NCBI GenBank assembly: GCA_005879985.1
Contig: VBIA01000173.1
Coordinates: 1,562-65,561 of the forward strand
Source: Chloroflexota bacterium
GTDB lineage: Bacteria; Chloroflexota; Dormibacteria; Dormibacterales; Dormibacteraceae
Direction of reading: 5' to 3'
Length of the DNA: 64,000 bases
Under the pieces are notes generated by a model, which ran no database searches, was not told where the DNA came from, and saw nothing but the letters and a program-made list of their open reading frames with translations. The position numbers were made by a program, and so were the translations under genes. Shown here in pieces: positions 579 to 60,699 of this stretch. Within the stretch, counting starts at the first letter, position 1, and each line of letters opens with the position of its first letter.

Positions 579-2113
579 GGGCACAGCCGGCACTTTCTGC
601 GCTCGGGCTGCGGATCGAAGCGGCCGGCGCGGATCTTTTCCGCCACTTCGATCGCGATCGTCCGAGCTTCGGCCTGCAGCTTCGGCACGCCTTCGAGGCG
701 AATCGCCGAGCCCTCCGCGAGGTAGACGACCTCGAGCTCGATCGGGTCGAGGCTCAGACCTGTCGACGCGCCGAGGGCGTACAGCGCCACCTGGAGGTCG
801 CGCCTGGCGCGCGCGAGCGGACGCCCGCTCTTGTAATCGATGATGAGCCAGCCCTCGTCGGTGCGATCGACCCGGTCGATCACTCCGTGCAGCGTGAAGC
901 CGTCCACCGCGGCGGAGAATTCCCGCTCCAGCAGATCTGGCGTGCGCTCGAATCCGCCGCTCGCGCGGAAGGCCTCGAGCTGCTCGAGGCCCAGGCGCCG
1001 AAAGGTGGCTGCGCGACGTGCATCCGGGAAGCCGGACGTCTCCCACACCTCGGCGTGCATCGCGTGCAGCCGTTCGGGCGTGATGGCGTTTCCAAGGCGC
1101 CGCTCCTCGCCGGCGCGGCGCAGCACCTCGTGCAAGATCGTGCCCTGCACAGCCTCGGCGTTCTGGGCCGCCGGCAGCCTCTCCCGATAGCGAAACCAAT
1201 ACTGCCGAGGACAATCCCGATAGCTCTGGATCGCACTGAAAGAAAGAACAAGGTCGCCCTTATCAACCTCGGCGCGGCTATTGACCTCCCCGCGAGCGGG
1301 GAGGGTCAGGGTGGGGAGAAACGCACTTGCTACAGAGCGTTCCAGCACAGCGCCCGACGCTCGGAGCTCCGCCAGGAATCGCGATTCCCGCCACCGGCGC
1401 CCTCCCTCGTAGTGCTCGGCGCGAGTCAGATACAGGCGCTTGCGCGCTCGCGTCATCGCCACGTAGAGCAGCCGCCGCTCCTCCGCGACCACGTCCTCTC
1501 GCCCGCGCACGAGCGGCTCGAGTACCGCCGGCGGCAGCACGAATCGCTGCGACCGTCCTGACTGCGGCAGCCTCCCCTCCACCAGCGACGGCACGAACAC
1601 CACATCGAACTCGAGTCCCTTGGCCTGATGGATGGTCATGACCGAGATCGCGTCGCCGCCGCGCTCGGGCGCCGCCGGCGCCTCGTCCTCTCCGGATAAA
1701 AGGACGAGGTCGAGATGAGCCATGTACGCGGCAAGTGAGTGGTTTGGACTTGAGTCGCAGAACTCCGCGATCGCCTCCGCCAACCTGCTGACATTGGCCG
1801 CCACGCGCGCCGCTTCGCTCGACTCAATGGTGGCGGACCGCCGGTCCAGGTAGCGCGTGCCGTTCATCAGCTCGAAGAGGAGATCGCGCACATCCATCGA
1901 CTGCGCAAGCGAGCTCAGCGCATCAACGAGCGCTTCCGAGCATTCGGGCGTCCGGGTTTTCACTCGGAACGCGGCGACCTGATCACTGGGGTCGTGCAGC
2001 ACACGCAGCATTGCGATGACGTCGCGGATCTCCGGCCGGTCGTAGACTCGGCAAGACGCCTCGCCTCGGCGGCGATCGCCCCGGCCTCGCCCACGCCATC
2101 CTCGCATCGCCAC
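548..2113 (-). CDS. C-terminal fragment of a UvrD/PcrA-type helicase fused to a PD-(D/E)XK (RecB/Cas4-like, 4-Cys) nuclease domain
   Basis: Helicase motif V (VMTIHQAKGLEFDVVFV) and motif VI (RRLLYVAMTRARKRLYL). Nuclease motifs GVIDRVD, IIDYKSG and QVALYALG, plus Cys in YRDCP and CRLCPYRLAC. Homology begins near YDRPEIRD (about 2050), not at the listed Met. Confidence 0.8.
   Translation of the reverse strand: MAMRGWRGRGRGDRRRGEASCRVYDRPEIRDVIAMLRVLHDPSDQVAAFRVKTRTPECSEALVDALSSLAQSMDVRDLLFELMNGTRYLDRRSATIESSEAARVAANVSRLAEAIAEFCDSSPNHSLAAYMAHLDLVLLSGEDEAPAAPERGGDAISVMTIHQAKGLEFDVVFVPSLVEGRLPQSGRSQRFVLPPAVLEPLVRGREDVVAEERRLLYVAMTRARKRLYLTRAEHYEGGRRWRESRFLAELRASGAVLERSVASAFLPTLTLPARGEVNSRAEVDKGDLVLSFSAIQSYRDCPRQYWFRYRERLPAAQNAEAVQGTILHEVLRRAGEERRLGNAITPERLHAMHAEVWETSGFPDARRAATFRRLGLEQLEAFRASGGFERTPDLLEREFSAAVDGFTLHGVIDRVDRTDEGWLIIDYKSGRPLARARRDLQVALYALGASTGLSLDPIELEVVYLAEGSAIRLEGVPKLQAEARTIAIEVAEKIRAGRFDPQPERRKCRLCPYRLACAEAL
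1285..1318. repeat. Copy A of a dispersed hairpin plus G-tract repeat, lying inside the helicase-nuclease ORF
   Basis: Perfect 9-bp inverted repeat CCTCCCCGC-GA-GCGGGGAGG (1285-1304) runs into GGGAGGGTCAGGGTGGGGAG. Related copies are at 17238, 17289 and 55326. Confidence 0.75.
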
Positions 2114-3383: not shown

Positions 3384-4452
3384 TTCGCCCCGAATTCACG
3401 CTCCACACGCGTGCACCCGTGATGAGATCCGCCGGAAACGGACCCATCTCGGCCGACGTGATGATGACCTGACCCTCGCCCGCCACTCTGCGCAGAAGGG
3501 CGGCGCGCCGCTCGGCGTCCAGCTCCGACAGGACGTCGTCCAGCAGGAGCACGGGCCGTTCACCGGCGCGCCTCGTGACGAGCGCCGCCTCAGCGAGCTT
3601 GAGGCTCACCACCGCGGTCCGCTGCTGCCCCTGGGAGGCGTAGCTTCGAGCGTCACGCCCGTCGAGCCGGATGAGCAGGTCGTCGTGATGAGGACCGATC
3701 GTTGTCGACCCCCTCCGCAAGTCGTCGCCAAGCGACTTTTCCACAGCATCTCCGAAGTTCTCGGGGGGTCCGATGTAGGCGATTTCGAGCCGTTCGCCGG
3801 CCGCGATTTCAGCGTGGCTTTCTGCCGCGTACGGCCGCAGCTCCTCGACCGCCCTGGCACGCGCGCCGGCTATGTCCGAGCCGTAAGCCACGAGCTCGGC
3901 GTTCCAGGCTTCCAACACGCCCGGCGCCTCCTCGCCGGCGGCGATCCTCTTGAGCAGGCTGTTGCGCTGCTCGAGCACCCGCCGGAGGGCGGCCAGGTTG
4001 CGCGCGTAGCCCGGCTCGACCTGCACCAGCATCTGGTTGAGGAAGCGGCGGCGCTGCTCGGGCCCCGCCTTGACCAGGCCGAGGTCGTCGGGCCAGAAGA
4101 GCGTCACCCGGAAATGGCCCGGCAGGTCGAAGCCACGGCGGCGGACACCGTCGACCTCGATGACGCGCCGCACTCGTTCGCCTTCTCCCTGCAGGGTGAT
4201 CGTCACCTCGAGCCCGCGACCCGCCGACTCCACCTCGGCGTGGATGCGGGCAGCAGGCGTCACGGGTCCGAGCAGCTCCTGGTCGCGCCTGGCGCGCGGC
4301 GACGAGGACAGCGCGAGCATCGCCACTGCCTCCAGCAGGTTGGTCTTGCCCTGCCCGTTCGCACCCACGAAAACGTTCACGCCGGGTCCAGGCTCCAGGT
4401 CGAGGTGTGCGTAGTTGCGGTGGTTGTTCAGTTCTAGGCGCTTGAGCTCCAC
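3367..4452 (-). CDS. recF: DNA replication/repair protein RecF
   Basis: N-terminal Walker A (VFVGANGQGKTNLLEAV), signature ASQGQQRT and Walker B (LLLDDVLSELD). Sits between dnaN and DUF721. Confidence 0.95.
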   Translation of the reverse strand: MELKRLELNNHRNYAHLDLEPGPGVNVFVGANGQGKTNLLEAVAMLALSSSPRARRDQELLGPVTPAARIHAEVESAGRGLEVTITLQGEGERVRRVIEVDGVRRRGFDLPGHFRVTLFWPDDLGLVKAGPEQRRRFLNQMLVQVEPGYARNLAALRRVLEQRNSLLKRIAAGEEAPGVLEAWNAELVAYGSDIAGARARAVEELRPYAAESHAEIAAGERLEIAYIGPPENFGDAVEKSLGDDLRRGSTTIGPHHDDLLIRLDGRDARSYASQGQQRTAVVSLKLAEAALVTRRAGERPVLLLDDVLSELDAERRAALLRRVAGEGQVIITSAEMGPFPADLITGARVWSVNSGRIEACG

Positions 4453-4465
4453 GCCGGAAGCCCGA

Positions 4466-5542
4466 CTACGACATGGCCACCCGCACAGGCATGATCACGT
4501 AGAGGTAGTGCTCCTTGCCCGGCGGGCGGATCAGCCCTGGGCTGAGCGGACCGTCGAAGAGCAGCTCGACCTGATCCTCGCCGATCACCCCCAGGGCGTC
4601 TAGGACGTAGCGGGCATTGAACGCAATCTGGATCTCCGATCCCTCGACGTCGGCAGGCATCTCGGCCTTGCTGTCCCCCACCTCGTTCGTCGTCGCCGAC
4701 AAAACGACGGCGCCGGCGTGGGCTTTGACGCGGATGACGTTGGCGCTGTCGCGAGCGAAAAGCGACACCGCTCGCACGGTTTGCGTCAGCTCAGACGTGG
4801 CCAGCCGGACCTTGGTCGAGCTCTTGCTGGGGATAACTTGTGAGTAATTTGGATACTTTCCGTCGATAAGCCGAGACGTCAACTCCGAGTTGCCGGCTTT
4901 GAAGAAAATCTGGTTGCGGGCCTTCGAGATGATGATCTCGACCTGGCCAGGCTCGCCCTTCAGCACGCGGCTCAGCTCGGCCAGCGCTCGTGCCGGCACG
5001 ATGAGACTTGCGTCGAGCTCAGCGCCGCCGCTCGCCGGAAGCTTGCGCACCGCGAGCCGGTGCCCGTCGGTGGCGGCCAGCGTCAGGTTTCCCTGCTCGA
5101 CCGCCTTGATCAGCTCATCGAGCGGCACCTGCAGCCGGTCGCCCTCGTCCGGTCGCGGACCTGGCGGGAACTCCTCGGCCTCGATGCACTTGATGTGGGT
5201 GTCGAAGCGTGCGCATCGCAGTGAAAGTGACTGCGTCGCGCCGTCGAGCGTCATCTCGAGTTCCTCGTCGGGAAGCGTGCCCACGAAATCGGTGAGCAGG
5301 CGCGCCGGAGCGGTGGTGCTGCCCTCCATGGCGACCTCGGCCGGCACCAGCTTGCGGATGCCGATCTCGAGGTTGGTCGCGCTGAGCGCAAGTCCTTCAG
5401 GCGTGGTCTCGATGAGGATGTTGTTCAGGATAGGCAGCGTCGTCCGGCTCGAGATCGCGCGCGACACGACCTGAAGCGCCTGCCCTAGCACTGAGGGTCT
5501 GCAGGTCACCTTCATCTGCGTTGCGATGGCTTTAGCACTCAC
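4466..5542 (-). CDS. dnaN: DNA polymerase III beta sliding clamp, with an apparent internal gap of about 20 aa
   Basis: SSRTTLPILNNILIE, ATDGHRLAVRK, SRLIDGKYPNY and MPVR are clamp signatures. The GTG at 5542 has a GGGGGA Shine-Dalgarno 8 nt upstream; an alternative ATG is at 5515 (MKVTCRP). Confidence 0.9.
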   Translation of the reverse strand: MSAKAIATQMKVTCRPSVLGQALQVVSRAISSRTTLPILNNILIETTPEGLALSATNLEIGIRKLVPAEVAMEGSTTAPARLLTDFVGTLPDEELEMTLDGATQSLSLRCARFDTHIKCIEAEEFPPGPRPDEGDRLQVPLDELIKAVEQGNLTLAATDGHRLAVRKLPASGGAELDASLIVPARALAELSRVLKGEPGQVEIIISKARNQIFFKAGNSELTSRLIDGKYPNYSQVIPSKSSTKVRLATSELTQTVRAVSLFARDSANVIRVKAHAGAVVLSATTNEVGDSKAEMPADVEGSEIQIAFNARYVLDALGVIGEDQVELLFDGPLSPGLIRPPGKEHYLYVIMPVRVAMS

Positions 5543-15856: not shown

Positions 15857-17236
15857 TTACTTCTCCTTATGTGTCGTGTTCGGCTCCACGGTAGCGGTTT
15901 CGCGAGGAACGACCTCCAGGCGCAGCCCTTTCCGGCCGACGACCTTGATGGGCGTTCCCGCGTGGATCGGTTCTCCCGACGTTGTGGCCTTCCAGAGCGC
16001 GCCGCCAACGAAGACGAAGCCCTCGGGTGCAAGGTCTTGCCTGGCCTCGCCAGAAGCCCCAACCAGCGTTTCGGATCCGGCGGCCGCCGGCCGGCGACGC
16101 GCGATCCAGATGCGCTGCACGAAGAAGACGAAGAAACCGAAGCTGATCAGGCCGGACAAAGCGATCAGCACTGGACTCACCCCGAGCCCTACTGGGCCGG
16201 TGTTGATCAGGAAGGCAAGTCCGAGCACGAGCGCCACGACGCCACCCGCGCTGAGGATGCCGTGGGTATTGGCCTTCAGGTCGGCAACGAAGAGCCCAAG
16301 AGCGACGATGAGCATGAGCGCGCCGGCGATGTTCAGTGGCAGGTTGGCGAGCGAGACCACCGCCAGCACGGCGGCGATGCCGCCGACCACGCCGGGCAGG
16401 ATCGCGCCTGGCGACGTCAGCTCGGTGATGATCCCGTAGGCGGCCAGCAGGAGCAGCAGCGCGGCGATCGTGGGGTCGATGAGCGCGCCGAGGAACACCT
16501 GCCAGAAGGGCATGGGCTCGTCGGTGACGATCGCCCCGGCTGTGTGAATGGTCAGTGTCCCGCTCGGCCTGCTGACGGTCCGGTTGTCGAGTGTTGCCAG
16601 CAAAGAGGGCACATCGTTGGCTTCGAGGTCCGCGACGTGCAGGCGTATCGCCTCCTCGGCGCTGATGTTCACGCTGTGCCGCACCGCGTCCTCGGCCCAG
16701 TCGGCGTTGCGACCGTGCATTGATGCGAGGCTGCGGACGCGCGTCACCGCGTCGTTCAGGACTTTGGCGCCGAGATCGCCGGTCAGGTCGGCACCGGTGG
16801 CGTCGATGGGATGCGCGGAGCCGATGTTGGTGCCTGGGGCCATGGCCACGACGTCCGCGGCTTGCGCGACGAACAGGCCCGCCGAGGCTGCGCGCGCGCC
16901 GCTTGGGTACACGTACACGATGACCGGCACCTTCGAGTTGAGAAGCGACGTGACGATGTCGTCCATCGAGGTGGAGATGCCGCCGGGCGTGTTCAGCACG
17001 AGCAAGAACGCGCCCGATTGGTCGGACTCGGCGCGCGACACCTCGCTGGCCACGTAGGCGGCGGTGATGTTGTTGATGACGCCGTCCAGGTCGGCCCTCA
17101 GGACATGCGGGGTGGCCGCCAGCGACGGCTGCGGCAGCAGGGCCAGCACCGCCACGAACGCCAGCGCGACCCGGACCAGACGCACGCCACGATTATTCGA
17201 CGGATGGATGTAAAACGTGGAACATCCCCCCAACAA
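15857..17236 (-). CDS. NfeD-like membrane-bound ClpP-class serine protease (long form: protease, TM and OB domains)
   Basis: VLNTPGGISTSM and YPSGARAASAGLFVAQAAD (ClpP-like), a central TM block and a C-terminal OB domain (GTPIKVVGRKGLRLEV). A likelier start is GTG 17185, giving the signal peptide VRLVRVALAFVAVLALL. Confidence 0.85.
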   Translation of the reverse strand: MLGGCSTFYIHPSNNRGVRLVRVALAFVAVLALLPQPSLAATPHVLRADLDGVINNITAAYVASEVSRAESDQSGAFLLVLNTPGGISTSMDDIVTSLLNSKVPVIVYVYPSGARAASAGLFVAQAADVVAMAPGTNIGSAHPIDATGADLTGDLGAKVLNDAVTRVRSLASMHGRNADWAEDAVRHSVNISAEEAIRLHVADLEANDVPSLLATLDNRTVSRPSGTLTIHTAGAIVTDEPMPFWQVFLGALIDPTIAALLLLLAAYGIITELTSPGAILPGVVGGIAAVLAVVSLANLPLNIAGALMLIVALGLFVADLKANTHGILSAGGVVALVLGLAFLINTGPVGLGVSPVLIALSGLISFGFFVFFVQRIWIARRRPAAAGSETLVGASGEARQDLAPEGFVFVGGALWKATTSGEPIHAGTPIKVVGRKGLRLEVVPRETATVEPNTTHKEK

Positions 17237-17237
17237 T

Positions 17238-17276
17238 CCCTCTCCCCTCAGGGGAGAGGGTCAGGGTGAGGGGCGT
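17238..17276. repeat. Copy B of the hairpin plus G-tract repeat
   Basis: CCCTCTCCCC-TCA-GGGGAGAGGG perfect inverted repeat (17238-17260), followed by TCAGGGTGAGGGGCGT. Confidence 0.8.
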
Positions 17277-17288
17277 AAGAAAGGCTCA

Positions 17289-17315
17289 GGGGGAGAGGGT
17301 CAGGGTGAGGGGCGT
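17289..17315. repeat. Copy C of the G-tract repeat (tandem to copy B, without the left hairpin arm)
   Basis: GGGGGAGAGGGTCAGGGTGAGGGGCGT matches copy B exactly over the G-tract box. Confidence 0.8.
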
Positions 17316-17344
17316 CAAAAAGGCCTCCGCGTAAAATCGCGGAG

Positions 17345-17904: not shown

Positions 17905-19029
<1,125 letters not shown>

Positions 19030-20731: not shown

Positions 20732-20895
20732 CCGAGCCTCTTTCTTTCGAGCTCAGCCGCCCAGGCGCCGAGGCGCCGCGTCTGCCGGCCGCAGGTGTGC
20801 AGGCTCCCGCACCGGAGGACGCGCTCTCCAAAGATGCGCTCCGCGCGCATCCGCCCGACCTACCGCGTCTCAGCGAGCCCGAGATCATGCGCCAC
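20728..20895 (+). CDS. gcvPB: N-terminal fragment of glycine dehydrogenase subunit 2 (first ~56 codons, frame 1)
   Basis: A GTG at 20728 overlaps the gcvPA stop. [13 protein letters not shown]...[12 protein letters not shown] matches the usual GcvPB N-terminus. Homology then jumps to another frame at about 20896. Confidence 0.6.
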
Positions 20896-22129
20896 CAACG
20901 AGGCGGCGGCCGCGCTGCCGGGATTCGCCGGACTGCATCCGTATCAGGACGAGGAGACGGTGCAGGGCGCGCTCGAGCTCATGTACCGGCTGGAGCGCGC
21001 GCTGTGCGCGATCGTCGGCGTCGACCGGGTGACGCTGCAGCCGGCTGCCGGCGCCCACGGCGAGTGGACGGCCCTCCGGATGATCCAGGCATATCACCGC
21101 TCGCGCGGCGACAAGCGCTCAGAGGTCCTGGTCCCGGACTCGGCGCACGGAACCAACCCGGCGAGCGCGGCACTGAGCGGCTTCCAGGTGGTCGAGGTGC
21201 GCTCGGGGCCTGACGGCCGCATCAGCCTGGCCGACCTGGAGTCGAAGCTGTCGCCGCAGGTCGCGGCCCTGATGCTGACAAACCCCAACACCTTGGGGTT
21301 GTTCGAGCGCGAGATCCTGGATGTAGCCGAGATGGTTCACGCCACCGGGGCGATGCTCTACTACGACGGCGCCAACCTCAACGCCTTCATGGGCGTGGCC
21401 CGGCCGGGCGACATGGGCTTCGACGCGGTGCACATGAACTTGCACAAGACGTTCACCACCCCGCACGGCGGCGGCGGCCCCGGCGCAGGCCCGGTGGGCG
21501 TGAAGGCCGACCTCATCCCGTTCCTCCCACACCCGACGGTCGAGCAGTCCGACGGCCACTACACGTTTGATTTCAAGCGGCCGAAGTCGATCGGCCGCGT
21601 GCGCAGCTTCTACGGCAACTTCGGAATGCTCGTCCGCGCCTACACGTACATCCTGGCCATGGGCGGCGACGGCCTGACGCAGGCATCGCTCGACGCTGTT
21701 CTGTCCGCGAACTACCTGCGCAAGCAGGTCGAGGGCGTGCTCGACCTGCCCCATGAGGGCCCGTGCATGCACGAGTTCGTGGCCAGCGCGCACAACCTGG
21801 CGCCGCAAGGCGTGAAGGCCCTGGACGTGGCCAAGGGGCTGCTCGAGAGGGACTTTTATGCCCCCACGGTCTACTTCCCGCTCGTGGTGGCGGAGGCAAT
21901 CATGGTCGAGCCGACTGAGACCGAGAGCAAGGCCACCCTCGACGCCTTCGCGGCCGCCCTGAAGGAGATCGTGGAGCAGGCTCGGACCGACCCCGCGGCG
22001 CTCCACGCCGAGCCCCACAGCCTGCCCGTCGGGAGGCTCGACGAGGTGGGCACGGCGCGCCGGATCACGGCTTATCTGACCGGCCAGAGCGAGGATCCGG
22101 TTTTGAGGTGGAAGCGAGTTCAGAAATAG
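20795..22129 (+). CDS. gcvPB: Glycine dehydrogenase (decarboxylating) subunit 2, main fragment (homology from about 20897)
   Basis: [52 protein letters not shown] (PLP-Lys region) and the C-terminal domain are present. Residues before NEAAA in this ORF are out-of-frame junk. Confidence 0.85.
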
Positions 22130-22312
22130 GCCTGTTAAGAGGGGTCCCGGAGGCCATTTCCGTATTCGAAATCCGGTAAAATTCAAAGCCTGAAACTCTC
22201 CCCAGTTGACCCCTACGAGTTCTCCACGCTGGGAGGCCTGATTTCCGGATAAATGGCAGTCCGAAAACCCCTGCCTGAACCTTCCCGCAGGTCCAAATCC
22301 CTTGGCGCGGAC

Positions 22313-23671
22313 ATGGCGTACACAGCCGAGCAGATCCAGGTCCTCGAGGGCCGCGAGCACGTTCGGCGGCGTCCGAGCATGTACATCGGCTCGACCAGCG
22401 CGACCGGTCTTCACCACCTGGTCTACGAGGTGGTCGACAACGCAGTCGACGAGGCTCTGGCGGGCTACTGCACGCGCATCGTCGTCACCCTCCACAAGGA
22501 CGGCAGCTGCTCGGTCGATGACAACGGCCGTGGCATCCCGGTGGACGTCCATAAGAAAGAAGGTCTCTCCGCGCTCGAGCTGGTGATGACTCGGCTTAAC
22601 GCCGGCGGCAAATTCGGCGGAGGCGGCTACAAGGTTTCGTCAGGCCTGCACGGCGTGGGCGTCTCGGCAGTGAACTTCCTCAGTGCGAAGCTGGAGGTAT
22701 GGGTCCACCTCGGCGGCAAGATCTACCACCAGGCCTACGAGCGGGGCGTGCCGAAGGCCCCGGTCAAGGCCATCGGCAAGACCGACCACCGCGGCACCAT
22801 CGTGCGGTTCTGGCCCGACCCGCAGATCTTCCCCGACGTCACCCTCGACCGCGAGGTCATCCGCCACCGCCTGCGCGAGATGGCCTATCTGAACAAGCGG
22901 CTGGAGATCGCACTCTCTGAGGAGGAGCTCGCGATCACGAGCACTTTCTACTTCGAGGGTGGCATCGTCTCGTTTGTCCGCGCGCTCAACCGCGGCAAGG
23001 CCGTCGTGAACTCGATGCCTTGCTATGTCGACCGCGAGATCGAGGGCACGCAGGTCGAAGTCGCGCTGCAGTACAACGACACGTTCGTCGAGAACGTGAT
23101 CGCCTTCGCAAACACCATCCACACCATCGAGGGCGGCAGCCACCTCACTGGTTTTCGCTCCGCGCTCACCAACGTCCTGAACCGCTACGCGCGGAAGGCC
23201 ACCATCCTCAAGGAGTCCGACCCGAACCTCACCGGTGACGACGTGCGCGAGGGATTGACGGCGGTCATCAGCGTCAAAGTGCTCGAGCCGCAGTTCGAAG
23301 GTCAGACCAAGGGAAAACTTGGCAACGCCGAGGTGCAGGGCCACGTTTCGCTGGCGCTGACCGAGGGACTCACGCAGTACCTCGAGGAGAACCCGTCAGA
23401 AGGCCGGCGCATCGTCGAGAAGTCGCTGACCGCTTCGCGCGCGCGTGAGGCGGCGCGCAAGGCGCGCGATCTGGTGCAGCGCAAGAGCCTGCTCGAGTCG
23501 AGCACGCTTCCTGGGCGATCCTCCCGATGCGCGGCAAGATTCTCAACGTCGAGAAGGCGCGCCTCGACAAGGTGCTGGGCTTCGAGGTCATCCGCGACCT
23601 CATCACCGCGATGGGCGCAGGCATCGGCGACAACTTCAACATCGAGAAGATGCGCTACCACCGGATCGTGA
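22313..23671 (+). CDS. gyrB: DNA gyrase subunit B, N-terminal fragment (ATPase and transducer); homology ends at about 23515
   Basis: [54 protein letters not shown] and [12 protein letters not shown]. After ..ESSTLPG the frame no longer resembles GyrB. Confidence 0.9.
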
Positions 23672-24090
23672 GCATGACCGACGCCGACGTCGACGGCAGT
23701 CACATCCGCACGCTGCTGCTCACATTCTTCTTCCGGCATTTCCCGGAGGTCATCGACCGGGGCTACCTCTATATGGCGCAGCCGCCGCTGTACAAGGTGT
23801 CGAAGGGCAAGCAGGTCGTGTGGTGCCGGTCCGAGGCCGACCGCGAGCGCGCGCTGAAGCAGCTCGGCAAGAACGCAGAGGTCCAGCGCATGAAGGGACT
23901 CGGCGAGATGAACGCCAATGAGCTTTGGGATACCACCATGAACCCGGAGACGCGCGTCCTTCTGCGTGTGCAGGTCGACGACGCCGCGGCGGCCAACGAG
24001 ATATTCGAGAAGCTGATGGGCCCTGAGGTCGAGCCACGCAAGAAATTCATCCAGGCGCACGCCAAGAGCGTCCGGAACCTAGACATCTAG
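23527..24090 (+). CDS. gyrB: DNA gyrase subunit B, C-terminal fragment (rest of Toprim plus tail), in a different frame
   Basis: (AILP)[49 protein letters not shown] and ..NLDI terminus. Confidence 0.9.
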
Positions 24091-24115
24091 TGAGCGTCCG
24101 GGCCCGGCCGCTCTA

Positions 24116-25090
24116 ATGCGAATCGCTGTCGACGCAATGGGCGGCGACAACGCGCCGGAGCAGGTGCTGCAGGGCGCGACTCAAGCCGCCGAGGAGATGG
24201 GCATCGACATCGCGATTGTCGGGCTGCCCGGCTCGGTGCAGCCGCTGCTGGAGAAGCATCCGAAGCTCGTTCTGGTGCCCTGCACGCAGGTCATCGGAAT
24301 GGACGAGCATCCGGCGCAAGCGGTGCGATCGAAGCCCGACTCATCGATGAGCGTATGCGCGCACCTGTGCAAGGCAGGAAAGGCGGACGGCTGGATTTCG
24401 GCAGGCAACTCCGGAGCGATCATGGCCACAGCCCTCTTCGTGCAGGGCCGGATCAGAGGAGTCGAGCGCCCCGCCCTCGGGTCGGTGATTCCGACCCGCG
24501 ACGGCTTCGCTTACTTCCTCGATGTGGGCGCCAACGTTGACTCGAAGCCCGAGTACCTCGTGCAGTTCGCAACGATGGGCGCGGTGTACGCGCGCGAGAT
24601 GATGGGCCGGCCTGAGCCGCGAGTGGGTCTGCTCAGCAACGGCGAGGAGGACGGCAAGGGCAACGAGCTGGTGCGCGAGGCCGGGAGACGACTGAAGGGC
24701 ACGATGCGCGGGTTCGTCGGCAACGTGGAGCCGAAAGACCTGTACGCGTCAAAGGCCGACGTGGTCGTGGCGGACGGCTTCGTCGGCAACGTGGCCATCA
24801 AGATGGCGGAGGCGACGGCCGAGTTCCTGTTCCGCAACCTGCGCGACGAGATCCCTCGCACGACGCGCGGAAAGCTGGGCGGACTGCTCATCCGGGACGG
24901 GGTGCGGCAGCTCCGCGCGCGCATCGACTGGCGCGAGTTCGGAGGTGCCCCGCTGCTGGGCATCGACGGCGTCGCGGTCATCGCCCACGGCCGTTCTGAC
25001 GCGCGCGCCATAAAGAACGCCATCCGCGTCACGCGCGAGGCGGTGGAAAACAAGCTCGTCGGTAAGATTCGAGCTGAGGTGGGCAGGTGA
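24116..25090 (+). CDS. plsX: Phosphate acyltransferase PlsX
   Basis: MRIAVDAMGGDNAP, GNSGA, GNVEPKD, DGFVGN and GAPLLG signatures. Confidence 0.92.
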   Translation: MRIAVDAMGGDNAPEQVLQGATQAAEEMGIDIAIVGLPGSVQPLLEKHPKLVLVPCTQVIGMDEHPAQAVRSKPDSSMSVCAHLCKAGKADGWISAGNSGAIMATALFVQGRIRGVERPALGSVIPTRDGFAYFLDVGANVDSKPEYLVQFATMGAVYAREMMGRPEPRVGLLSNGEEDGKGNELVREAGRRLKGTMRGFVGNVEPKDLYASKADVVVADGFVGNVAIKMAEATAEFLFRNLRDEIPRTTRGKLGGLLIRDGVRQLRARIDWREFGGAPLLGIDGVAVIAHGRSDARAIKNAIRVTREAVENKLVGKIRAEVGR

Positions 25091-26343
25091 ATAGGAAGAA
25101 CGGGCGCACGCGCGTCGTCATCACCGGCATGGGCACGATCAATCCGCTCGGCAAGAACCTCGACGAGTACTGGGACGGGCTGATCGAAGGGCGGAGCACG
25201 GCGCGCACCGTCGAGGGCACCTATCCGACCGACAAGCTGACAACCAAGTTCGCCTGCGAGATCCAGGGCTACGACCCGACGACATACCTCGACCGCAAGG
25301 CGGCGTCGCGCATGTCGCGGTTCGCGCAGATGGCCGTCATCGCGTCAAACATGGCGCTGGAGGATGCGGCACTCGACGTTTCGAAAGAGGAGAGCTTCCG
25401 CGTGGGTGTCGACCTTGGCACCGGCATCGGCGGGTTCATCGAGATGACGTCGGGTGCCGGGGCGTTCGCGATGAAGGGCCGGTTGTCGAATCCGCTTTAC
25501 GCGGCAGTGATCCTCCCCAATATGGCGGCCGCGTCGGTGGCCATGCACTTTCGGGTCCGCGGTCCCAACACCACAATGACCACCGCGTGCGCAGCGTCGA
25601 CGCATGCAATCGGCGACGCCGCACGCATCATCGAGCACGGCGACGCTGACGTGATGCTGGCGGGCGGCACCGAGGCCGGGCTTTGCGAGATAGGCATCTA
25701 CGCCTTCGGCGTCATCAAGGCCCTGTCTACGCGCAATGACGCGCCGGAGAAGGCGAGCCGGCCGTTCGATCGCGACCGCGACGGGTTCGTGCCTGGCGAA
25801 GGCGCCGGCGTGCTGGTGCTCGAGTCACTTGAGCACGCGGTCAATCGCGGAGCGCGCATATACGGCGAGGTGCTCGGCTTTGGGCTCACCTGTGATGCCT
25901 ATCACCAGGTCGCGCCCGATGCGACCGGTGAGGCGCCCGCTCAAGCGGTGACACTGGCGATGAAGGACGCGGGGGTCGAGCCGGCCGACATTGACTACAT
26001 CAACGCCCACGGAACCTCGACGCAGCTCAACGACGCCGGGGAAACCAAGGCTTTGAAGATCGCGCTAGGCGAGCACGCATACAAGATCCCCATCAGCAGC
26101 ACTAAGTCGATGATCGGACACCTGCTCGGCGCGGCCGGTGCCGTGGAAGCGATCGCGACGATCCTCACGATCAACCGCGGAATGATCCACCCGACCATCA
26201 ACTACGAGAACCCCGACCCGGAGTGTGACCTCGACTACGTTCCGAACACAGCGCGGCGCAAGGACGTGCGCATCGCGATGTCGAACGGATTCGGTTTCGG
26301 CGGCCACAACGCGGTCGTGGTTCTCGGCAAGTACGAGGAATAA
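25087..26343 (+). CDS. fabF: Beta-ketoacyl-ACP synthase II
   Basis: RVVITGMG, the active-site region TTACAAS, INAHGTSTQLND and SNGFGFGGHNA. Confidence 0.92.
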   Translation: MNRKNGRTRVVITGMGTINPLGKNLDEYWDGLIEGRSTARTVEGTYPTDKLTTKFACEIQGYDPTTYLDRKAASRMSRFAQMAVIASNMALEDAALDVSKEESFRVGVDLGTGIGGFIEMTSGAGAFAMKGRLSNPLYAAVILPNMAAASVAMHFRVRGPNTTMTTACAASTHAIGDAARIIEHGDADVMLAGGTEAGLCEIGIYAFGVIKALSTRNDAPEKASRPFDRDRDGFVPGEGAGVLVLESLEHAVNRGARIYGEVLGFGLTCDAYHQVAPDATGEAPAQAVTLAMKDAGVEPADIDYINAHGTSTQLNDAGETKALKIALGEHAYKIPISSTKSMIGHLLGAAGAVEAIATILTINRGMIHPTINYENPDPECDLDYVPNTARRKDVRIAMSNGFGFGGHNAVVVLGKYEE

Positions 26344-26349
26344 CCGCAA

Positions 26350-28763
<2,414 letters not shown>

Positions 28764-28767
<4 letters not shown>

Positions 28768-29048
28768 GCTCCGTCGGCCCCTGGCTTCTGGTGTTCGGCG
28801 CGGCCGTGATCGTGGTGGAAGGCACGATCAGCGCGGTATGGAGCGTCAAGCTGGCAAGGCAGGGCCGGGCGCTGGCGGCGATGCTCGAACGCGAACGCGG
28901 CCTGGTCCAGGGCGACGTCGCACGCCTGCATGACACGCTTGAAGAGACGCGCCGCCTGTGGGAGCCATGGCGGCGGGCGTTGCGCTGGCTGCGACATCCG
29001 TTCGTGGCCGCTCTGCTTGCCTCGTTCTGGAGGCGTGTGGCGGGCTAG
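28764..29048 (+). CDS. Hypothetical small membrane protein
   Basis: GTGA overlap with the gyrA stop; one N-terminal TM segment ([12 protein letters not shown]). No recognisable motif. Confidence 0.4.
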
Positions 29049-29084
29049 CTGACGCCGGGTCCGTTAGGCCAAACTACTGGCGGC

Positions 29085-29732
29085 ATGCGTGAGGTAGAGA
29101 GCCACGATCCCGCCACGTCCCTGAAGCTGGCCGAAGAGTCGGCGGTGGCGAGGGAACGAGCCCGGATGGCCCGCGAGCTGCACGACGGCCTGGCAACGGA
29201 CCTGGCCGGGGCGATCTCACTCTTCAAGGTCTACCTCGAGGGCCACCGCGAGGCGAGCGACACGACACTTCGCAATGTCTTCGAGATCCTCGAGCGGATG
29301 CTGAAGCAGGTGCGGGAGACCCTGGCGGAGCTGCGGCCGCGGCCGATTGGGCCAGAGGGCCTCGTGGGCGATCTGCGCCACCAGGCCGAAGAGTTCGCGC
29401 GCCTGTACGCGATCCGCGTCGAGATTGCGACCAGCGGCACCGAGGACATGCTGCCGCATCCGCAGCGCGAAGTCGTCAACCTGGTGGTCCGTGAGGCGTT
29501 GACCAACGTCCGAAAGCACTCCGGTTCGTCGATCTGCCGGGTGCGCATGCATTTCGCCGCGCGACCGTTCCTTGTCGAGGTCTCGGACGAGGGCAAGGGA
29601 TTCGTATCGTCACAGGCCCACGGCTACGGGCTGGTGGGAATGCGCGAGCGCGCCGCGGGCATCGGAGGCAGGCTCGAGGTGGTGAGCACGGAAGGTCGCG
29701 GCACGACTGTGTTTCTCTTCGGACCGCACTAA
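29085..29732 (+). CDS. Soluble histidine kinase core (HisKA_3 plus HATPase_c), with no sensor domain
   Basis: H-box ARELHDGLATDL, N-box REALTNVRKH and GYGLVGMRERA (G2 box). Confidence 0.8.
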   Translation: MREVESHDPATSLKLAEESAVARERARMARELHDGLATDLAGAISLFKVYLEGHREASDTTLRNVFEILERMLKQVRETLAELRPRPIGPEGLVGDLRHQAEEFARLYAIRVEIATSGTEDMLPHPQREVVNLVVREALTNVRKHSGSSICRVRMHFAARPFLVEVSDEGKGFVSSQAHGYGLVGMRERAAGIGGRLEVVSTEGRGTTVFLFGPH

Positions 29733-29850
29733 ACAGAGCAGCGCGGCCGAGCGCCACGACTTTCCTCATCGTGGTGCTCGGTGTGTGTTTGCCGGCCTTC
29801 TGGTGGTCCCCGACCGCGTGGTCGTTCGGACCGCACCAGACATCCACCCC

Positions 29851-30459
29851 TCACCACACGCATACCGGTATCCGGTGCGGCGCTCGCTGGTTCAGCTTCC
29901 GCTTCACCGAGCTGATCAGCGCATCCGTCTCCACGTGACCTGCTTTGATCGCCCGAGCGATCTCCTCGCGTGACAGGCCGCAGCTCATGAGCTGCACAAC
30001 CTCAGCTTCGGCCTCGGTCATCCGGCCGAGCGGACCGCGCAGCGCCGAGATGATCGGGACCAGTGCGGTGCCCAGGCCGATCGCGTACTGCACGTCTTCT
30101 TCCGAGTACCAGTAGTCGCGCCTGCAGCCGAGCACAAGCAGGCCGATGGGCCGCTGCCCGGGCTCACCGATCGGGGTGTACATGATGGCGGGCCAGTCGA
30201 GCTCCCAGTCGAAGCCGGCGGCGGGAGTTGTGTAGGGAAAGACGGAGTTGACGACCACCGGCCGCTGCTCGAAAAGCGCGCGGCGTGACAGCGGCTGCAG
30301 GGGATGAGCCTGCAGCAGCCGCCGCGATATCTCTGATGCTGCAACCGGCTGCAGCGCCCCTCCGCGTAGGAAGCCGACGACCCAGCGGTCGTGGGACAGG
30401 ACTTCGAGGGCCAGCCCCAGTCGGCGCCTGGCTTCCTGTAAATCAAGGAGCTGGCCCAT
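29851..30459 (-). CDS. LuxR-family transcriptional regulator with a GAF-like N-terminal domain
   Basis: C-terminal HTH: MTEAEAEVVQLMSCGLSREEIARAI...SSVKRKL. About 140 aa of N-terminal sequence is not a receiver domain; the GAF-like assignment is a guess. Confidence 0.6.
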   Translation of the reverse strand: MGQLLDLQEARRRLGLALEVLSHDRWVVGFLRGGALQPVAASEISRRLLQAHPLQPLSRRALFEQRPVVVNSVFPYTTPAAGFDWELDWPAIMYTPIGEPGQRPIGLLVLGCRRDYWYSEEDVQYAIGLGTALVPIISALRGPLGRMTEAEAEVVQLMSCGLSREEIARAIKAGHVETDALISSVKRKLNQRAPHRIPVCVW

Positions 30460-30593
30460 GCAGCGAGGCTATGCACATCCGGATTCGCTGACCTCAGCCC
30501 AGCTTCATCGTTTCCTCAGGAATCGCTGAACTTTTGGCGCGCCGGGCGCGAGCCGGTTGGGCCTCACTGAATTCTGTTAGCGTCCTGCCGGGG

Positions 30594-40651: not shown

Positions 40652-41125
40652 CAGCAGCGCGCCGACGCGAAACAGCGTCACCTTGTGCACGACCTCGTAG
40701 GCCTCGAACGGGATGAGCACGCCCGTTGCGATGACGGTCAGGTACTCGGCCCATCGCCGGCGCATCGCTAGGCCGATGCCTTCGGTGCCTTCGAGCAGCG
40801 AGTACGCAAACGCGCCGATGGCCAGCAGGATCGTGTGAGGAAAGTTGCCGATCATCACCAACAGACGGAAGAACAGCTGCTCGATGATCGTCTCGTCGGT
40901 GTCGAGGTTCAGCTGCTGCTGAGCTGACGCGGCCCACTGGGTGAGCCACCCTTCTTGACCGGCGACCAGCAGGCCGATGCCGAGCGCGATGAGGACCACG
41001 GCCTTGCCGACGCGCTCGACGATGATCACCTTGATGAACGCGTCGTGCTCGCCGCCGATGCTGTTCAGCTCGGCAAGCAGACGGGCGAAGTAGTGCGGTC
41101 TGCGCTTGATGGCCTCGTCGGACAT
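40592..41125 (-). CDS. DUF2127-like membrane protein
   Basis: KVIIVERVGKAVVLIALGIG... with four TM segments and the C-terminus NLAVVGYLAYRKR. Its 3' end overlaps the convergent GT fusion gene by 60 nt. Confidence 0.6.
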   Translation of the reverse strand: MSDEAIKRRPHYFARLLAELNSIGGEHDAFIKVIIVERVGKAVVLIALGIGLLVAGQEGWLTQWAASAQQQLNLDTDETIIEQLFFRLLVMIGNFPHTILLAIGAFAYSLLEGTEGIGLAMRRRWAEYLTVIATGVLIPFEAYEVVHKVTLFRVGALLLNLAVVGYLAYRKRLFVGI

Positions 41126-46925: not shown

Positions 46926-48224
46926 ACGGCCCGCGGCCGCGCCATCGAGGACCTCGGCCGCGCGACATCCGTGCCTGCTCTGCAGCTTGACCGCGGCAAG
47001 CGCAGAGATCCCGCAACGTCTTGCGAGCTCTTCCGCGGGCTCCATGTCGGATTCACTTCCGGGCAGGGGGCGCGTAGCCGTGACGCAGGGTGACTGATGT
47101 CCGAGCTTGCGACAAACCGCGTCCGATGTCTCCTCGGCCATGAGCCGGTACATCGACAGCTTGCCGCCGGCGATGGTGACGAAACCGTCGACGCCATCGG
47201 CCGCGTGATCGAAGATCCGGTACCTGCGCGACAGCTCGTCTTCGTAGCGGCGCCACTTGAAGAGGGTCGGCCGCACACCGGTGGTCGTGCGCACCGGACG
47301 GAACTTGCGAATCGCGGGGAAGACGCGCTCGAAACCCTGCAGCAGGTAGTCGACCTCGTCGCGCATGACCTCGACCGAATCGAGGTCGCCGTAGAAGTCG
47401 TCGTCGGTCGTGCCGAGGAGCGTGAAGCCCGCGTGCGAGACCATCAGCAGGTCGCGACCGTCGATCGACTCCCCGCTGATCGCGAACCGGGAGATGCGGT
47501 GGGGGTAGATGATGTGGATTCCCTTTGCGGGACGCAGCTGCACGTCGACGCCGGCCATGTGCCCGACCTCGGGAACCCACGGGCCGGCGGCGTTCACCAC
47601 GACCTTTGCGCGCGCCTCGCTGTACACGCCGTCCGAAGTCCGGTAGCGCACGCCGATGACGGCGCCGCCATCGCGCAGCAGCTCCACCACCTTGGTGTGG
47701 TTCAAAGCGCGAGTGCCGTTCGAAACCGCGTCCTGAACGTTCGCGAACACGAGCCGGTGCGGGTCGACGCCCCATTCCTCCATGGTCACCGCGCCGACCA
47801 TGTCGCGCGTGAGCCCGGGCTCGATCTGGAGCGCCTCCTCCGGCGTCAGCCGGGTGTGCGGGTGTGACTTCTTCAAGGGCTGGAAGCGGTCGTAAACCTC
47901 CATCGCCGTCTCCATCCGCTCGATGTTGTTCTTGTCGTGCGGAAGGACCGGGATGAGGAAGAGGACGCGATAGACGATGTTGCGCGCGATCGTGACGATG
48001 TGGCCCGCGTCCGTGGTCGAGAGGCGCGTCGTGTCCCAGTCGAACTCGAGGTAGCGCGGCCCGCCGTGGATCATCCAGCTAGACGAGCCGCTGGTGCCCG
48101 CGCCCCAGTCGCCTTTCTCGAGGAGCAGCACCGACAGCCCGCGAAGCGAGAGGTCGCGCGCGATGCCCGCGCCGGTGACACCGCCGCCGATGATCACGAC
48201 GTCGTGAGCAGAGGGCTGGCTCAC
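46764..48224 (-). CDS. FAD-dependent glycerol-3-phosphate dehydrogenase-like oxidoreductase (GlpA/GlpD family), main fragment
   Basis: DVVIIGGGVTGAGIARDLSLRG (FAD motif), GTSGSSSWMIHGGPRYLE and IAGGKLSMYRLMAEE. Homology ends near ..AEVLDGAAAGRPG (about 46925). Confidence 0.8.
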   Translation of the reverse strand: MSQPSAHDVVIIGGGVTGAGIARDLSLRGLSVLLLEKGDWGAGTSGSSSWMIHGGPRYLEFDWDTTRLSTTDAGHIVTIARNIVYRVLFLIPVLPHDKNNIERMETAMEVYDRFQPLKKSHPHTRLTPEEALQIEPGLTRDMVGAVTMEEWGVDPHRLVFANVQDAVSNGTRALNHTKVVELLRDGGAVIGVRYRTSDGVYSEARAKVVVNAAGPWVPEVGHMAGVDVQLRPAKGIHIIYPHRISRFAISGESIDGRDLLMVSHAGFTLLGTTDDDFYGDLDSVEVMRDEVDYLLQGFERVFPAIRKFRPVRTTTGVRPTLFKWRRYEDELSRRYRIFDHAADGVDGFVTIAGGKLSMYRLMAEETSDAVCRKLGHQSPCVTATRPLPGSESDMEPAEELARRCGISALAAVKLQSRHGCRAAEVLDGAAAGRPGVSALRVDLAPARRASCAPPRSSAASSDGARPSDSTRSAILCNRRGLDARPS

Positions 48225-48252: not shown

Positions 48253-50277
48253 TCAGGACGCGGCTTCGTGCTGCTTCTGGAACTCTTCGATGATGCCCTT
48301 GGCCAGGTGGGCGGGCATCTCGTCGTAGTGCGAGAACTTCTTGCTGAAGCTTCCTCGGCCCTGCGTGATCGAGCGCAGGTCGAGCGCGAAGCGCAGCATC
48401 TCCGACTCCGGGACCGTGGTTTTCACCTTCTGGTAGCCATCGTCGGGCTCGGTGCCCATGATCTTGCCGCGCCGACCGTTGATGTCCGACATGATGTCGC
48501 CGAGGTTCTTCTCGGGCACCCGGATCTCCGCTTCAACGACGGGTTCGAGCAGCACCGGCCCGGCGTCCAGCGATGCCCTGCGGATGGCGAGAGATCCCGC
48601 GATCTGGAAGGCCATGTCGTTGGAGTCCACCTGGTGGTACTTGCCATCGACGAGCGTCACCTTGACGTCGACCATCGGGTAGCCCGCGACCACGCCCTTG
48701 GCCATGTTATCCACGATTCCCTTCTGCACCGACGCCCGGAAGTTCTGGGGAATGGCACCGCCGAAGATCTTGTCCTCCCACACGAAGCCTTCACCGCGCT
48801 TCGTCGGCGAAACCTCGATGACGCAAATTCCGTACTGGCCATGCCCTCCGGATTGCTTGACGTGCCTACCCTCGGCACGACTGTGGCCGGAAACGGTCTC
48901 GCGGTAAGCCACCTTCGGTGTCGCCGTGGTCGCCTCGACGCCGTACTTGCGCTTCAGCTTTTCCAACGTCACGTCCAGGTGCACGTCGCCGAGCCCCGAG
49001 ATGACCAGCTGGTGCGTCTCCTCGACCCGGTCCACGTGCAGCGTCGGATCCTCTTCAGACAGGCGTGCGAGGCCGCTGGAGATCTTCTCCTCGTCGCCGC
49101 GCGCTTTGGGTGTGATTGCCACGCTGTACGCGAGGCCAGGCAGGTCGATGGGCGCCAGCGGGCCGCCGTCCTTGTTGCCAAGCGTGTCGTTGGTGAGGGT
49201 GTGCGTGAGCTTGGTCACAGCGCCGATGTCGCCGGCATGGATCTCGGTCGCGGCGACGTGCTCCTTGCCGCGTGGGAAGAAGATCTGCGCCAGGCGCTCG
49301 TCGGCGCTGCGGTTGATGTTCGTGAGGTGCTGGTCGGCCTTGACGGTTCCGGCCACGACCTTGAAGTAGCTGACGCGCCCGAACTGGTCGCCGCCGGTGC
49401 TGAAGACGAAGGCTCGCGTGGGTTGCGAGGGGTCGCCTTCGGCGGGCGGCAGCAGCTCGCAGAGTGTCGACATCAGCGTGCGCACGCCGAGCAGCTTCGT
49501 CGCCGAGCAGCAGAGCACCGGGGCCACCTTGCCGGCGAGGATTCCCTCGCGCAAGCCTCGCTGGATCTCCTCCTCGTTCAGCGTGCCGGCGTCGAGGTAC
49601 TTCTCGAGCAGCGAGTCGTCGCTCTCAGCGGCAGCTTCGATGAGCTGCCCTCGGTATTCGTCGACGAGCTTCTGCATGTCGTCGGGGATCGGGACCTCGC
49701 CGCCCTTGCCGTCCTCTGTGGTGACGAAAGCCTTGAGGTGCAGCAGGTCGACGACCCCGCGGAAGTCCTGCTCCGAGCCGATCGGCAGGTGGAGCGGAAA
49801 AGGCCGCGGCGAAAGGTTGTCACGCATCGCTTTGACCGCGCCGTAGAAATCCGCGTGCTCCTTGTCGAGCTTGTTCACGACCACGACGCGCGGCTTGCTG
49901 CGAGCGTTGCACTGCTCCCAGGCGACCTCGGTGCCGACGGCGAGATGGTCGTTCGGTCCGACCACCACCACGGCGCCCTCGGCCGCTCGCAGCCCGCTCA
50001 TGGCCTGACCGGCGAAGTCGAGGAAGCCGGGCGCGTCGAGGATGTTGATCTTGAATCCGTTGTGCTCGGCGAACCCGACACCGAGGTTGATCGAGATCTT
50101 GCGTCTCTGCTCCTCGGGCTCGGTGTCCATGGCGGAGGTGTTCTGGTCGGTGGAGCCCATCCGCTGGAGGCCGCCGGAGGCGAAGAGCATGGCTTCCGCG
50201 ATCGTGGTCTTGCCGTCGTGGGAGTGGCCGAGGAGGACCACGTTTCGGATCTTGTCGGGAGAGTAATCAGCCGCCAT
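48253..50277 (-). CDS. Elongation factor G paralogue (EF-G2/FusA2-like)
   Basis: All five EF-G domains are recognisable: GHSHDGKTT, NKLDKE, domain IV GGHGQYG and the C-terminal SFSKKFSHYDE. The G3 motif reads DAPGFLDF rather than DTPGHVDF. Confidence 0.85.
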   Translation of the reverse strand: MAADYSPDKIRNVVLLGHSHDGKTTIAEAMLFASGGLQRMGSTDQNTSAMDTEPEEQRRKISINLGVGFAEHNGFKINILDAPGFLDFAGQAMSGLRAAEGAVVVVGPNDHLAVGTEVAWEQCNARSKPRVVVVNKLDKEHADFYGAVKAMRDNLSPRPFPLHLPIGSEQDFRGVVDLLHLKAFVTTEDGKGGEVPIPDDMQKLVDEYRGQLIEAAAESDDSLLEKYLDAGTLNEEEIQRGLREGILAGKVAPVLCCSATKLLGVRTLMSTLCELLPPAEGDPSQPTRAFVFSTGGDQFGRVSYFKVVAGTVKADQHLTNINRSADERLAQIFFPRGKEHVAATEIHAGDIGAVTKLTHTLTNDTLGNKDGGPLAPIDLPGLAYSVAITPKARGDEEKISSGLARLSEEDPTLHVDRVEETHQLVISGLGDVHLDVTLEKLKRKYGVEATTATPKVAYRETVSGHSRAEGRHVKQSGGHGQYGICVIEVSPTKRGEGFVWEDKIFGGAIPQNFRASVQKGIVDNMAKGVVAGYPMVDVKVTLVDGKYHQVDSNDMAFQIAGSLAIRRASLDAGPVLLEPVVEAEIRVPEKNLGDIMSDINGRRGKIMGTEPDDGYQKVKTTVPESEMLRFALDLRSITQGRGSFSKKFSHYDEMPAHLAKGIIEEFQKQHEAAS

Positions 50278-50382
50278 TCACACCCCAGATGCAAGCCGGC
50301 CGGTGGATACGACGATTAAGTCTAAGGATCGATTGGGGGCGGCGACTTGGAGGCGCCTGCGCTTCGGTAGAATTCGGGGTCC

Positions 50383-50610
50383 ATGGTCAAGAGGACGGCG
50401 TCGGTCGAAGAGGTGCTGGCCGCGATCGAGGCCGCCCGCGACAAGGTGATGGCCGACGAGGTCAAGTCACTCACGAAGCTGGGGATCCCGAAGGCGATGG
50501 CCTACCAGATGATCGCCAGCCGGTTCCACCAGAAGGTCGGCAACCAGGAGGAGGCCGAGACCGATCCATTCGAGGGCAACGCCACCACGTCCTGGGAAGA
50601 AATCGGCTAA
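50383..50610 (+). CDS. Hypothetical small protein (75 aa)
   Basis: ORF only. Confidence 0.35.
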   Translation: MVKRTASVEEVLAAIEAARDKVMADEVKSLTKLGIPKAMAYQMIASRFHQKVGNQEEAETDPFEGNATTSWEEIG

Positions 50611-50743
50611 GAGGCACGGGTGAGGACGGATGCCTCACTCCCGCGGCTACGCCGCGGTGACCCCAGCGGACGCTTCGCCTTGAGGAGACGCGCAGAACGC
50701 CAGGCGATGATTGGGTTGCGGCCCTACTAGGTCTGGTTAGCCT

Positions 50744-52231
50744 GTGAATCGGGCTGAGCGTCTGGCTCGGCTGCTCAGGGTGCTTGCTGCGATCATCGCC
50801 GAGCCTGGCCTCAACCCGCTCGAGCTGGCAGAGAAGGCAGGCGTCTCCGAGCGCACGCTCCGGCGCGATCTTTCCCAGCTGCGCGAGCTGGGCTACGAGG
50901 TTGCGTACACCAGCGGTTACGAGGTCCAGGAGAAGCTCAACCTCGAAGGCCGCGGGAAAAAGACGACGCGGCCTCGTGGTGATGACGCCCTGCTCCAGGC
51001 CGTGGCGCATGCGGTCGAGGCCGCCGGTCTGTGGCGCGACACCACCCCCGCGAGCGTGGCCACGCCGCGCAAACGGGCGCGCCGCGCGACCGGACCCCGC
51101 CCGCTCGTCCTCATCCCGAGCGGCCACGGCGACGCCGACTTCATCTACGCCACCGGCATGGACGTCGAGAGCGCGCTGTACATCAGGCCCGCCTCGGGCG
51201 ACGACATCCTTGTAGCCAGCCCGCTCGAGATCGACCGCGCGCGAACCGGGTCAAGGGCCGCGCGCATCCTCTCGTTTCGGGACGCGGGCTACGCGGAGCT
51301 GGGTGCGTACAGGTCATATGCGGTGCTGGCGGCCAAACTGCTGCGCGAGCAAGGCCAGGCCGAGGCGCGGGTTTCGCCGCGATTGCAGGCCGGCTATCTA
51401 GAAGGGCTGCGCGACGCGGGCGTCGACGTCGAGGTCGACCAGTCGCTGTTCGAGGCCGAGCGGCGGCACAAGACCCGCGAGGAGGCGGACAAGATTCGCG
51501 ACGCGCAGCGGGCGGCCGAGAAGGCGATGACCGAGATCGTGCGGCTTCTCGCTCAGGCCGAGATTCGCGAGGAACTGCTGTGGGCCGACGGCAAGCCCAT
51601 GACGTCGGAGTGGCTCTACGCGCGCGCGTCTCTTCTGCTGGCAGAGCTCGGGTTTTCGTGCCCCGACATGATCATCGCCGGGTCGCCCGACAACGCCATG
51701 CCTCACTACCGCGGCGAGGGCCAGATCCGCGCCGGCGCGCCGGTGATCATCGACATCTTTCCCGCCAGCCGCGGCAGCCACTACAACGGCGACCTGACGC
51801 GGACGGTGGTCGTCGGCGACATTCCAGAAGAGGTGCGTCGGATGCACGCGGCTACGCTGCAGGCGCTGGACGTGGGGGTCGAGTCGATCAAGGCGGGCGT
51901 GCCGGCCAACGACGTCCATCACGCGGTGTGCCAGGTGCTCGTCGACCGAGGTTATGGCGCCACCACCGATGGCTACGAGGGGCCCGACGGCGTCGCCAAG
52001 ATGAACCACAGCACCGGCCACGGCGTCGGTCTTGAGGTGCACGAGCAGCCGGGCGTGCGGAGCGCCAATGGCGAGCCGCTGGAAGAGGGCGACGTGATCA
52101 CGGTGGAGCCCGGCCTTTACCTGATGGGCTTCGGCGGCGTGCGAATCGAGGACACGGGCATGGTCACGGCGCGCGGCTTCGAGAACTTCACGTCGATAAC
52201 TCGCAGCATCGATCCGAACGACTACCTTTAG
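50744..52231 (+). CDS. Fusion protein: N-terminal HTH (HTH_11/YafY-like) plus an Xaa-Pro aminopeptidase-like M24 peptidase (creatinase-N and M24 domains)
   Basis: VNRAERLARLLRVLA..GVSERTLRRDLSQLRELGY (HTH). M24 metal ligands appear intact (IIDIF, NGDLTRT, HSTGHGVG, LEVHEQP, VRIEDT). Confidence 0.75.
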   Translation: MNRAERLARLLRVLAAIIAEPGLNPLELAEKAGVSERTLRRDLSQLRELGYEVAYTSGYEVQEKLNLEGRGKKTTRPRGDDALLQAVAHAVEAAGLWRDTTPASVATPRKRARRATGPRPLVLIPSGHGDADFIYATGMDVESALYIRPASGDDILVASPLEIDRARTGSRAARILSFRDAGYAELGAYRSYAVLAAKLLREQGQAEARVSPRLQAGYLEGLRDAGVDVEVDQSLFEAERRHKTREEADKIRDAQRAAEKAMTEIVRLLAQAEIREELLWADGKPMTSEWLYARASLLLAELGFSCPDMIIAGSPDNAMPHYRGEGQIRAGAPVIIDIFPASRGSHYNGDLTRTVVVGDIPEEVRRMHAATLQALDVGVESIKAGVPANDVHHAVCQVLVDRGYGATTDGYEGPDGVAKMNHSTGHGVGLEVHEQPGVRSANGEPLEEGDVITVEPGLYLMGFGGVRIEDTGMVTARGFENFTSITRSIDPNDYL

Positions 52232-52238
52232 CCGCGGC

Positions 52239-60572: not shown

Positions 60573-60599
60573 AAAGTCGGCGGCCTAGGATTGGCCGAC

Positions 60600-60699
60600 G
60601 GGGATGTTCGGGGGCTGGTGCCTCCCGCGGTCTTCAAAACCGTCTGCGGGGCGCTGCTGAGGCGTCCTGGGTGGGTTCGATTCCCATCCATCCCCGCCA
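60600..60699 (+). tRNA. selC: tRNA-Sec (anticodon UCA)
   Basis: Hand fold. Acceptor GGGGATG(T)/(C)CATCCCC plus discriminator G and encoded CCA. A 6-bp D stem (GGGGGC/GCCTCC) with the 4-nt loop TGGT. Anticodon loop CTTCAAA, with TCA at 60634-60636. A long variable arm (8-bp stem, 60647-60669). T arm GTGGG-TTCGATT-CCCAT. Confidence 0.85.

Follow-up and report, generated by a model that had tools for sequence, protein, structure and literature searches.

Is the gyrB gene of this genome really broken, or did the break arise when its sequence was put together? gyrB is essential, and in the stretch of 64,000 nucleotides analysed here (the window) it appears as two reading frames that do not join, with part of the catalytic Toprim domain missing from between them. 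The gene and its parts are as follows:

22313-24090, plus strand: gyrB as a whole, assigned by ORF reading, Pfam and blastn
22313-23515, plus strand: 5' part of gyrB, encoding the GHKL ATPase and transducer domains (PF02518, PF00204), with ..STLPG as its C-terminal end
23514-23516, plus strand: joint in gyrB, at which 109 nt are absent (the 36 codons KLADC..RFQ plus 1 nt); the contigs L019, L020 and L022 have the block
23516-24090, plus strand: 3' part of gyrB in another frame, encoding the remainder of Toprim and the GyrB C-terminal domain, identical to the intact homologue P0002 at 191 of 191 residues

Genomes, contigs and sequencing runs

The window comes from a soil metagenome-assembled genome (MAG) that is a species representative; it consists of 235 pieces totalling 2.85 Mb, is 88% complete and has 66.9% GC. 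JGI metagenome contigs were searched exactly with the 23 nt to the left of the gyrB joint. Moreover, 20 public soil runs were found to contain the stretch, the best of which (X1) holds 0.95 of the sampled words, and the Logan contigs of the runs were compared with window positions 22300-24100.

The gyrB gene in the window

The first gyrB frame runs from the ATG at 22313 to 23515 and is clean up to ..STLPG, and the second begins at approximately 23516 with AILPMRGK, ends with NLDI and has its stop at 24090. The 5' part is 98% identical to residues 1-409 of P0002, and the fully identical 3' part corresponds to residues 438-628 of the same protein. Pfam analysis of the N-terminal fragment (the product of window 22253-23668) detected HATPase_c (E 5.5e-15) and DNA_gyraseB (E 4.6e-56). 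In the C-terminal fragment, DNA_gyraseB_C (PF00986) was present (E 1e-28), whereas the Toprim match started only at profile position 29, compared to position 1 in P0002. The acidic DxDxD cluster of Toprim is present in the C-terminal fragment; the EGxSAGG motif with the catalytic glutamate was not found in the window gyrB by alignment with relatives or by Pfam, and the Toprim domain is incomplete.

Comparison by blastn with seven relatives located the break precisely, as gene position 1202 (window 23514) corresponds in each of the seven to two subject positions that are 109 nt apart. The 36 residues that relatives encode at the joint read KLADCSERDP..ELYIVEG[D/L/I]SAGGTAKGGRDR..Q, and the position of the joint is uncertain by 2 nt because the GG at 23514-23515 fits both sides. 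The preliminary description of this DNA had reported a split gyrB that lacks about 36 residues, or about 109 nt, with a frame shift of one at the junction. The two frames meeting at approximately 23515 and the break in the alignments bear this out; the figures are exact, and the 109 nt consist of 36 codons plus one base.

The missing segment is not found elsewhere in the MAG. The GyrB transducer profile PF00204 has a single match, the window gyrB itself, and Toprim profile matches are confined to four loci, namely ORFs of 821 aa, 601 aa and 216 aa in addition to the window gyrB, which in this search matches from profile position 24 onward. A search for a second intact gyrB or parE, as suggested in the preliminary description, was run on all 235 pieces with Pfam profiles and with tblastn using the intact homologue, and detected none. 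Similarly, tblastn and blastn searches of the MAG for the 109-nt block returned only this locus and chance matches of 13-23 nt. Displacement of the Toprim block to another place in the MAG is ruled out by the profile, tblastn and blastn searches, and the earlier claim that the EGDSAGG segment lacks a coding counterpart holds for the window as well as for the whole MAG.

Intact gyrB in near-identical assemblies

In all 20 relatives searched, gyrB is one continuous frame of 609-734 aa; among named organisms, Candidatus Dormibacterales have the gyrB closest to that of the window, with 73% identity. The 23-nt left flank was found in four JGI contigs, and all four read on into the KLADC block. One of them, the JGI contig L019, has 99.92% identity over window 20895-23515 and 99.86% over window 23514-27678, with 109 nt extra between these two stretches. 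Exact look-up of the neighbouring PlsX protein led to two further contigs, L020 (NCBI GCA_005880815.1) and L022 (JGI), which are 99.8-99.9% identical to the window; an exact look-up of the window GcvT protein gave no match. Pfam analysis of the intact gyrB of L020 and L022 detected HATPase_c, DNA_gyraseB, Toprim and DNA_gyraseB_C, and in L019, L020 and L022 the 109 nt are in frame and yield a normal GyrB of 628 aa. The deletion was not found in independent data, in which every contig that has the flank is intact. Assembled independently from the same population, L019, L020 and L022 (99.8-99.9% identity to the window) supply exactly the 109 nt that the site lacks, and restoration of about 109 nt there is what the preliminary description had itself named as speaking against its claim. 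The split therefore stands for the deposited sequence and not for the organism, of which near-identical independent assemblies have the intact gene.

Once the 109 nt are put back, as L019, L020 and L022 have them, gyrB encodes the GHKL ATPase, transducer, Toprim and C-terminal domains of a standard GyrB, and the protein differs from ordinary GyrB in that the Asp of EGDSAGG is Leu or Ile in the genus of the window. The motif reads EGLSAGG in six loci of the genus (L019, L020, L022, L007, L008 and L010) and EGISAGG in L012. The variable position of EGxSAGG, compared over 95 gyrB loci, is occupied by D (80 loci), L (6), E (3), N (2), P (2), I (1) and A (1), and the sequences with a residue other than D are mostly from Chloroflexota- or Dormibacterota-like MAGs. 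In E. coli GyrB this Asp corresponds to D426, a quinolone-resistance site, and by analogy the replacement of this residue by Leu or Ile suggests that the gyrase of the genus may differ in drug sensitivity.

Sequencing runs at the gyrB joint

None of the listed Logan records bridges the joint. In X1, record 2, a same-strain contig from a fourth independent assembly (902 nt, depth 3.8), matches window 22775-23515 with 4 differences in 741 nt and continues past 23515 for another 151 nt that do not resemble the window, and the fit of record 4 starts at 23514. In a second run (X2), the codons of ..PGKLADCSER can be read from loose ends at 23508. The summed depth amounts to approximately 4-10 in the flanks versus 292-813 in the bin directly to the right of the joint, which indicates that the sequence there is common to many soil organisms (at least 90% identity). 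A nucleotide comparison of 76 diverse gyrB genes gave an identity of 0.64 for the missing block versus a gyrB average of 0.58; the block ranks 78th among 593 gyrB segments by conservation and is not the single most conserved of these, and segments that overlap its 3' half belong to the ten most conserved of the 593. A minor population of reads in the source sample may carry the deleted junction.

Further joints in the window and in a sister MAG

Alignment of the window with two genomes of the same genus (G002 and G003) revealed six joints in the 64 kb, that of gyrB included, each of them in a conserved gene. The other five are as follows:

2044-2049, minus strand: helicase-nuclease gene, 118 nt absent by alignment with G002 and G003
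5093-5100, minus strand: dnaN, 69 nt absent, in frame, by alignment with the same-genus genomes
20895-20896, plus strand: gcvPB, 86 nt absent (the ..LGSCTMKYNP.. block), which L019 and L020 carry
28589-28590, plus strand: gyrA, 75 nt absent, in frame; the JGI contig L021 carries the 75 nt
46927-46935, minus strand: glpA-like oxidoreductase gene, about 85 nt absent by alignment with the same-genus genomes

Such joints thus occur about once per 10 kb of the window and are hidden, as none of them is marked by Ns. The gaps in dnaN and gyrA are in frame and resemble natural deletions.

At the gyrA joint, the strain identity of the flanking pieces differs: identity to L021 is 99.9% over window 23528-28590 versus 90.0% over 28590-30461. 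A drop of this kind is expected where pieces of different strains meet, and the comparison suggests that sequences of two strains were fused at 28590 into one chimeric contig. A second copy of window 48359-51654, 84-91% identical, is present on another contig of the MAG (C131 of G000); this copy probably stems from a related strain, a fragment of which was binned with the genome.

Gaps of the same kind are present in a sister MAG (G001), which lacks 131 nt at window 4225-4355, 126 nt at 18806-18931, 149 nt at 40704-40852 and about 148 nt at 52092-52235. None of these four sites (L113-L116) has Ns, and there the sequence is complete, and mutually consistent, in the window, G002 and G003. The occurrence of gaps without Ns at other sites in another MAG points to an artefact of a pipeline rather than of one genome. 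The assembly of the window MAG holds ten runs of 3-93 N each, in nine of its 235 pieces, and the presence of these runs indicates that it was scaffolded.

Origin of the gyrB break

The data argue strongly for a local assembly or scaffolding error in the MAG as the origin of the 109-nt gap, and this reading can be held with high confidence. Independent assemblies show that the population has the missing bases, and the error recurs regardless of gene function and also in the sister MAG. Moreover, gyrB is essential, yet the MAG holds neither another gyrB or parE nor a copy of the block, which favours an artefact. The break is thus very probably not a biological feature, the split being a property of the assembly and not of the organism, a soil bacterium related to Dormibacterota that very probably has an ordinary, uninterrupted GyrB of 628 aa. 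The most likely cause of the joint is that contig ends were joined without a gap placeholder. In this mechanism, two separately assembled contig ends would have been joined directly, with no Ns inserted and with loss of the short stretch between them. The contigs may have broken where the assembly graph is entangled by conserved blocks that many co-occurring organisms have in common, after which the scaffolder would have put the gap size at zero or below. Repeat collapse in a de Bruijn graph is unlikely, as GG and an imperfect 7-mer are all that the two sides have in common, and stripping of all Ns from the scaffolds was rejected as the whole account because N runs persist elsewhere in the assembly.

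Errors in MAG assemblies that corrupt gene sequences in public databases have been described by Chen, Anantharaman, Shaiber, Eren and Banfield (2020, Genome Res 30:315; PMC7111523), and include consensus sequence without support and Ns inserted despite overlap of the contigs. The joints described here resemble these errors in that the sequence at a contig join is, over a short distance, incorrect or missing and unsupported elsewhere, which corrupts a protein-coding gene of a public MAG, and in that they recur along scaffolds where the assembly is ambiguous. They differ in that sequence was dropped and no Ns were inserted.

A genuine deletion of 109 nt, which would make gyrB a pseudogene in the sampled population or a sub-population, is improbable. 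It is present in the deposited assembly, and the microhomology of 2 nt (GG) together with an imperfect TTCC[T/A]GG near both ends of the block is compatible with slippage. However, gyrase is essential and the MAG has no second copy, three assemblies of 99.8-99.9% identity are intact, and the X1 contig leaves the window sequence at the joint. Furthermore, the same contig has five more gaps, in dnaN, gyrA, gcvPB and two other genes, and the sister MAG has similar ones elsewhere; a living population could not credibly carry six independent, disabling deletions of core genes within 64 kb. That all six gaps are real deletions in a non-viable or complemented sub-population that dominated the source DNA is more doubtful still and has very little to recommend it; if true, it would imply a lineage that persists with disabled gyrB, gyrA, dnaN and gcvPB.

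Equally slight is the probability that the bases were removed after assembly, by curation, error-masking or gap-closing, and the resulting gap was then closed, which would still make the break an artefact. Curation pipelines that replace unsupported sequence have been described (PMC7111523), and the missing lengths of 69-118 nt are similar to those of the remaining N runs (3-93 N); however, Ns were kept elsewhere in the same assembly.

Restoration of GyrB by a programmed frameshift or translational bypass, or by a Toprim segment supplied in trans, is barely conceivable and is in practice refuted by the gene of the relatives, the intact assemblies and the search of the MAG: the loose analogy with bypassing in T4 gene 60 is all that speaks for it, whereas recoding cannot provide 36 absent residues that include the catalytic glutamate, the MAG does not encode the block at any other locus, and all relatives have a plain, continuous gyrB. 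Translational bypassing is known from gene 60 of phage T4, which encodes a topoisomerase subunit, and both in this gene and in intein-containing gyrB genes extra sequence is skipped or spliced and the coding information is complete. The window gyrB is like these cases in that the frame of a type II topoisomerase is interrupted, and unlike them in that part of the coding information is absent.

Consequences for the use of these genomes

With an assembly error as the preferred origin, the gap in gyrB carries no biological weight, since the gyrase of the organism is normal, and the concern is one of data quality. In this species-representative MAG and in at least one sister MAG, hidden joints remove 69-150 nt from conserved genes, giving rise to false pseudogenes, false split genes and, as in dnaN and gyrA, false in-frame deletions. 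Completeness and contamination scores will miss such joints. Before the loss of a gene, a split gene or an unusual motif is claimed for these genomes, it should be verified in reads or in sibling assemblies.

Other features of the window

Two tandem GC-rich palindromic elements (CCCTCTCCCCTCAGGGGAGAGGGTCAGGGTGAGGGGCG) are located at window 17236-17318, upstream of a sigma-factor-like ORF. Weaker copies of the CCCTCTCCCCTCAGGGGAGAGGGTCAGGGTGAGGGGCG palindrome are dispersed over many contigs of the MAG and its relatives, and the element looks like an intergenic repeat of the REP type. Finally, tRNA and Rfam scans of the window detected nothing besides one tRNA gene, which is unrelated to the gyrB joint:

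60599-60699: tRNA-Sec, detected by ARAGORN and by Rfam (RF01852, 66.7 bits)

The presence of this gene in the sequence makes it probable that the organism uses selenocysteine.
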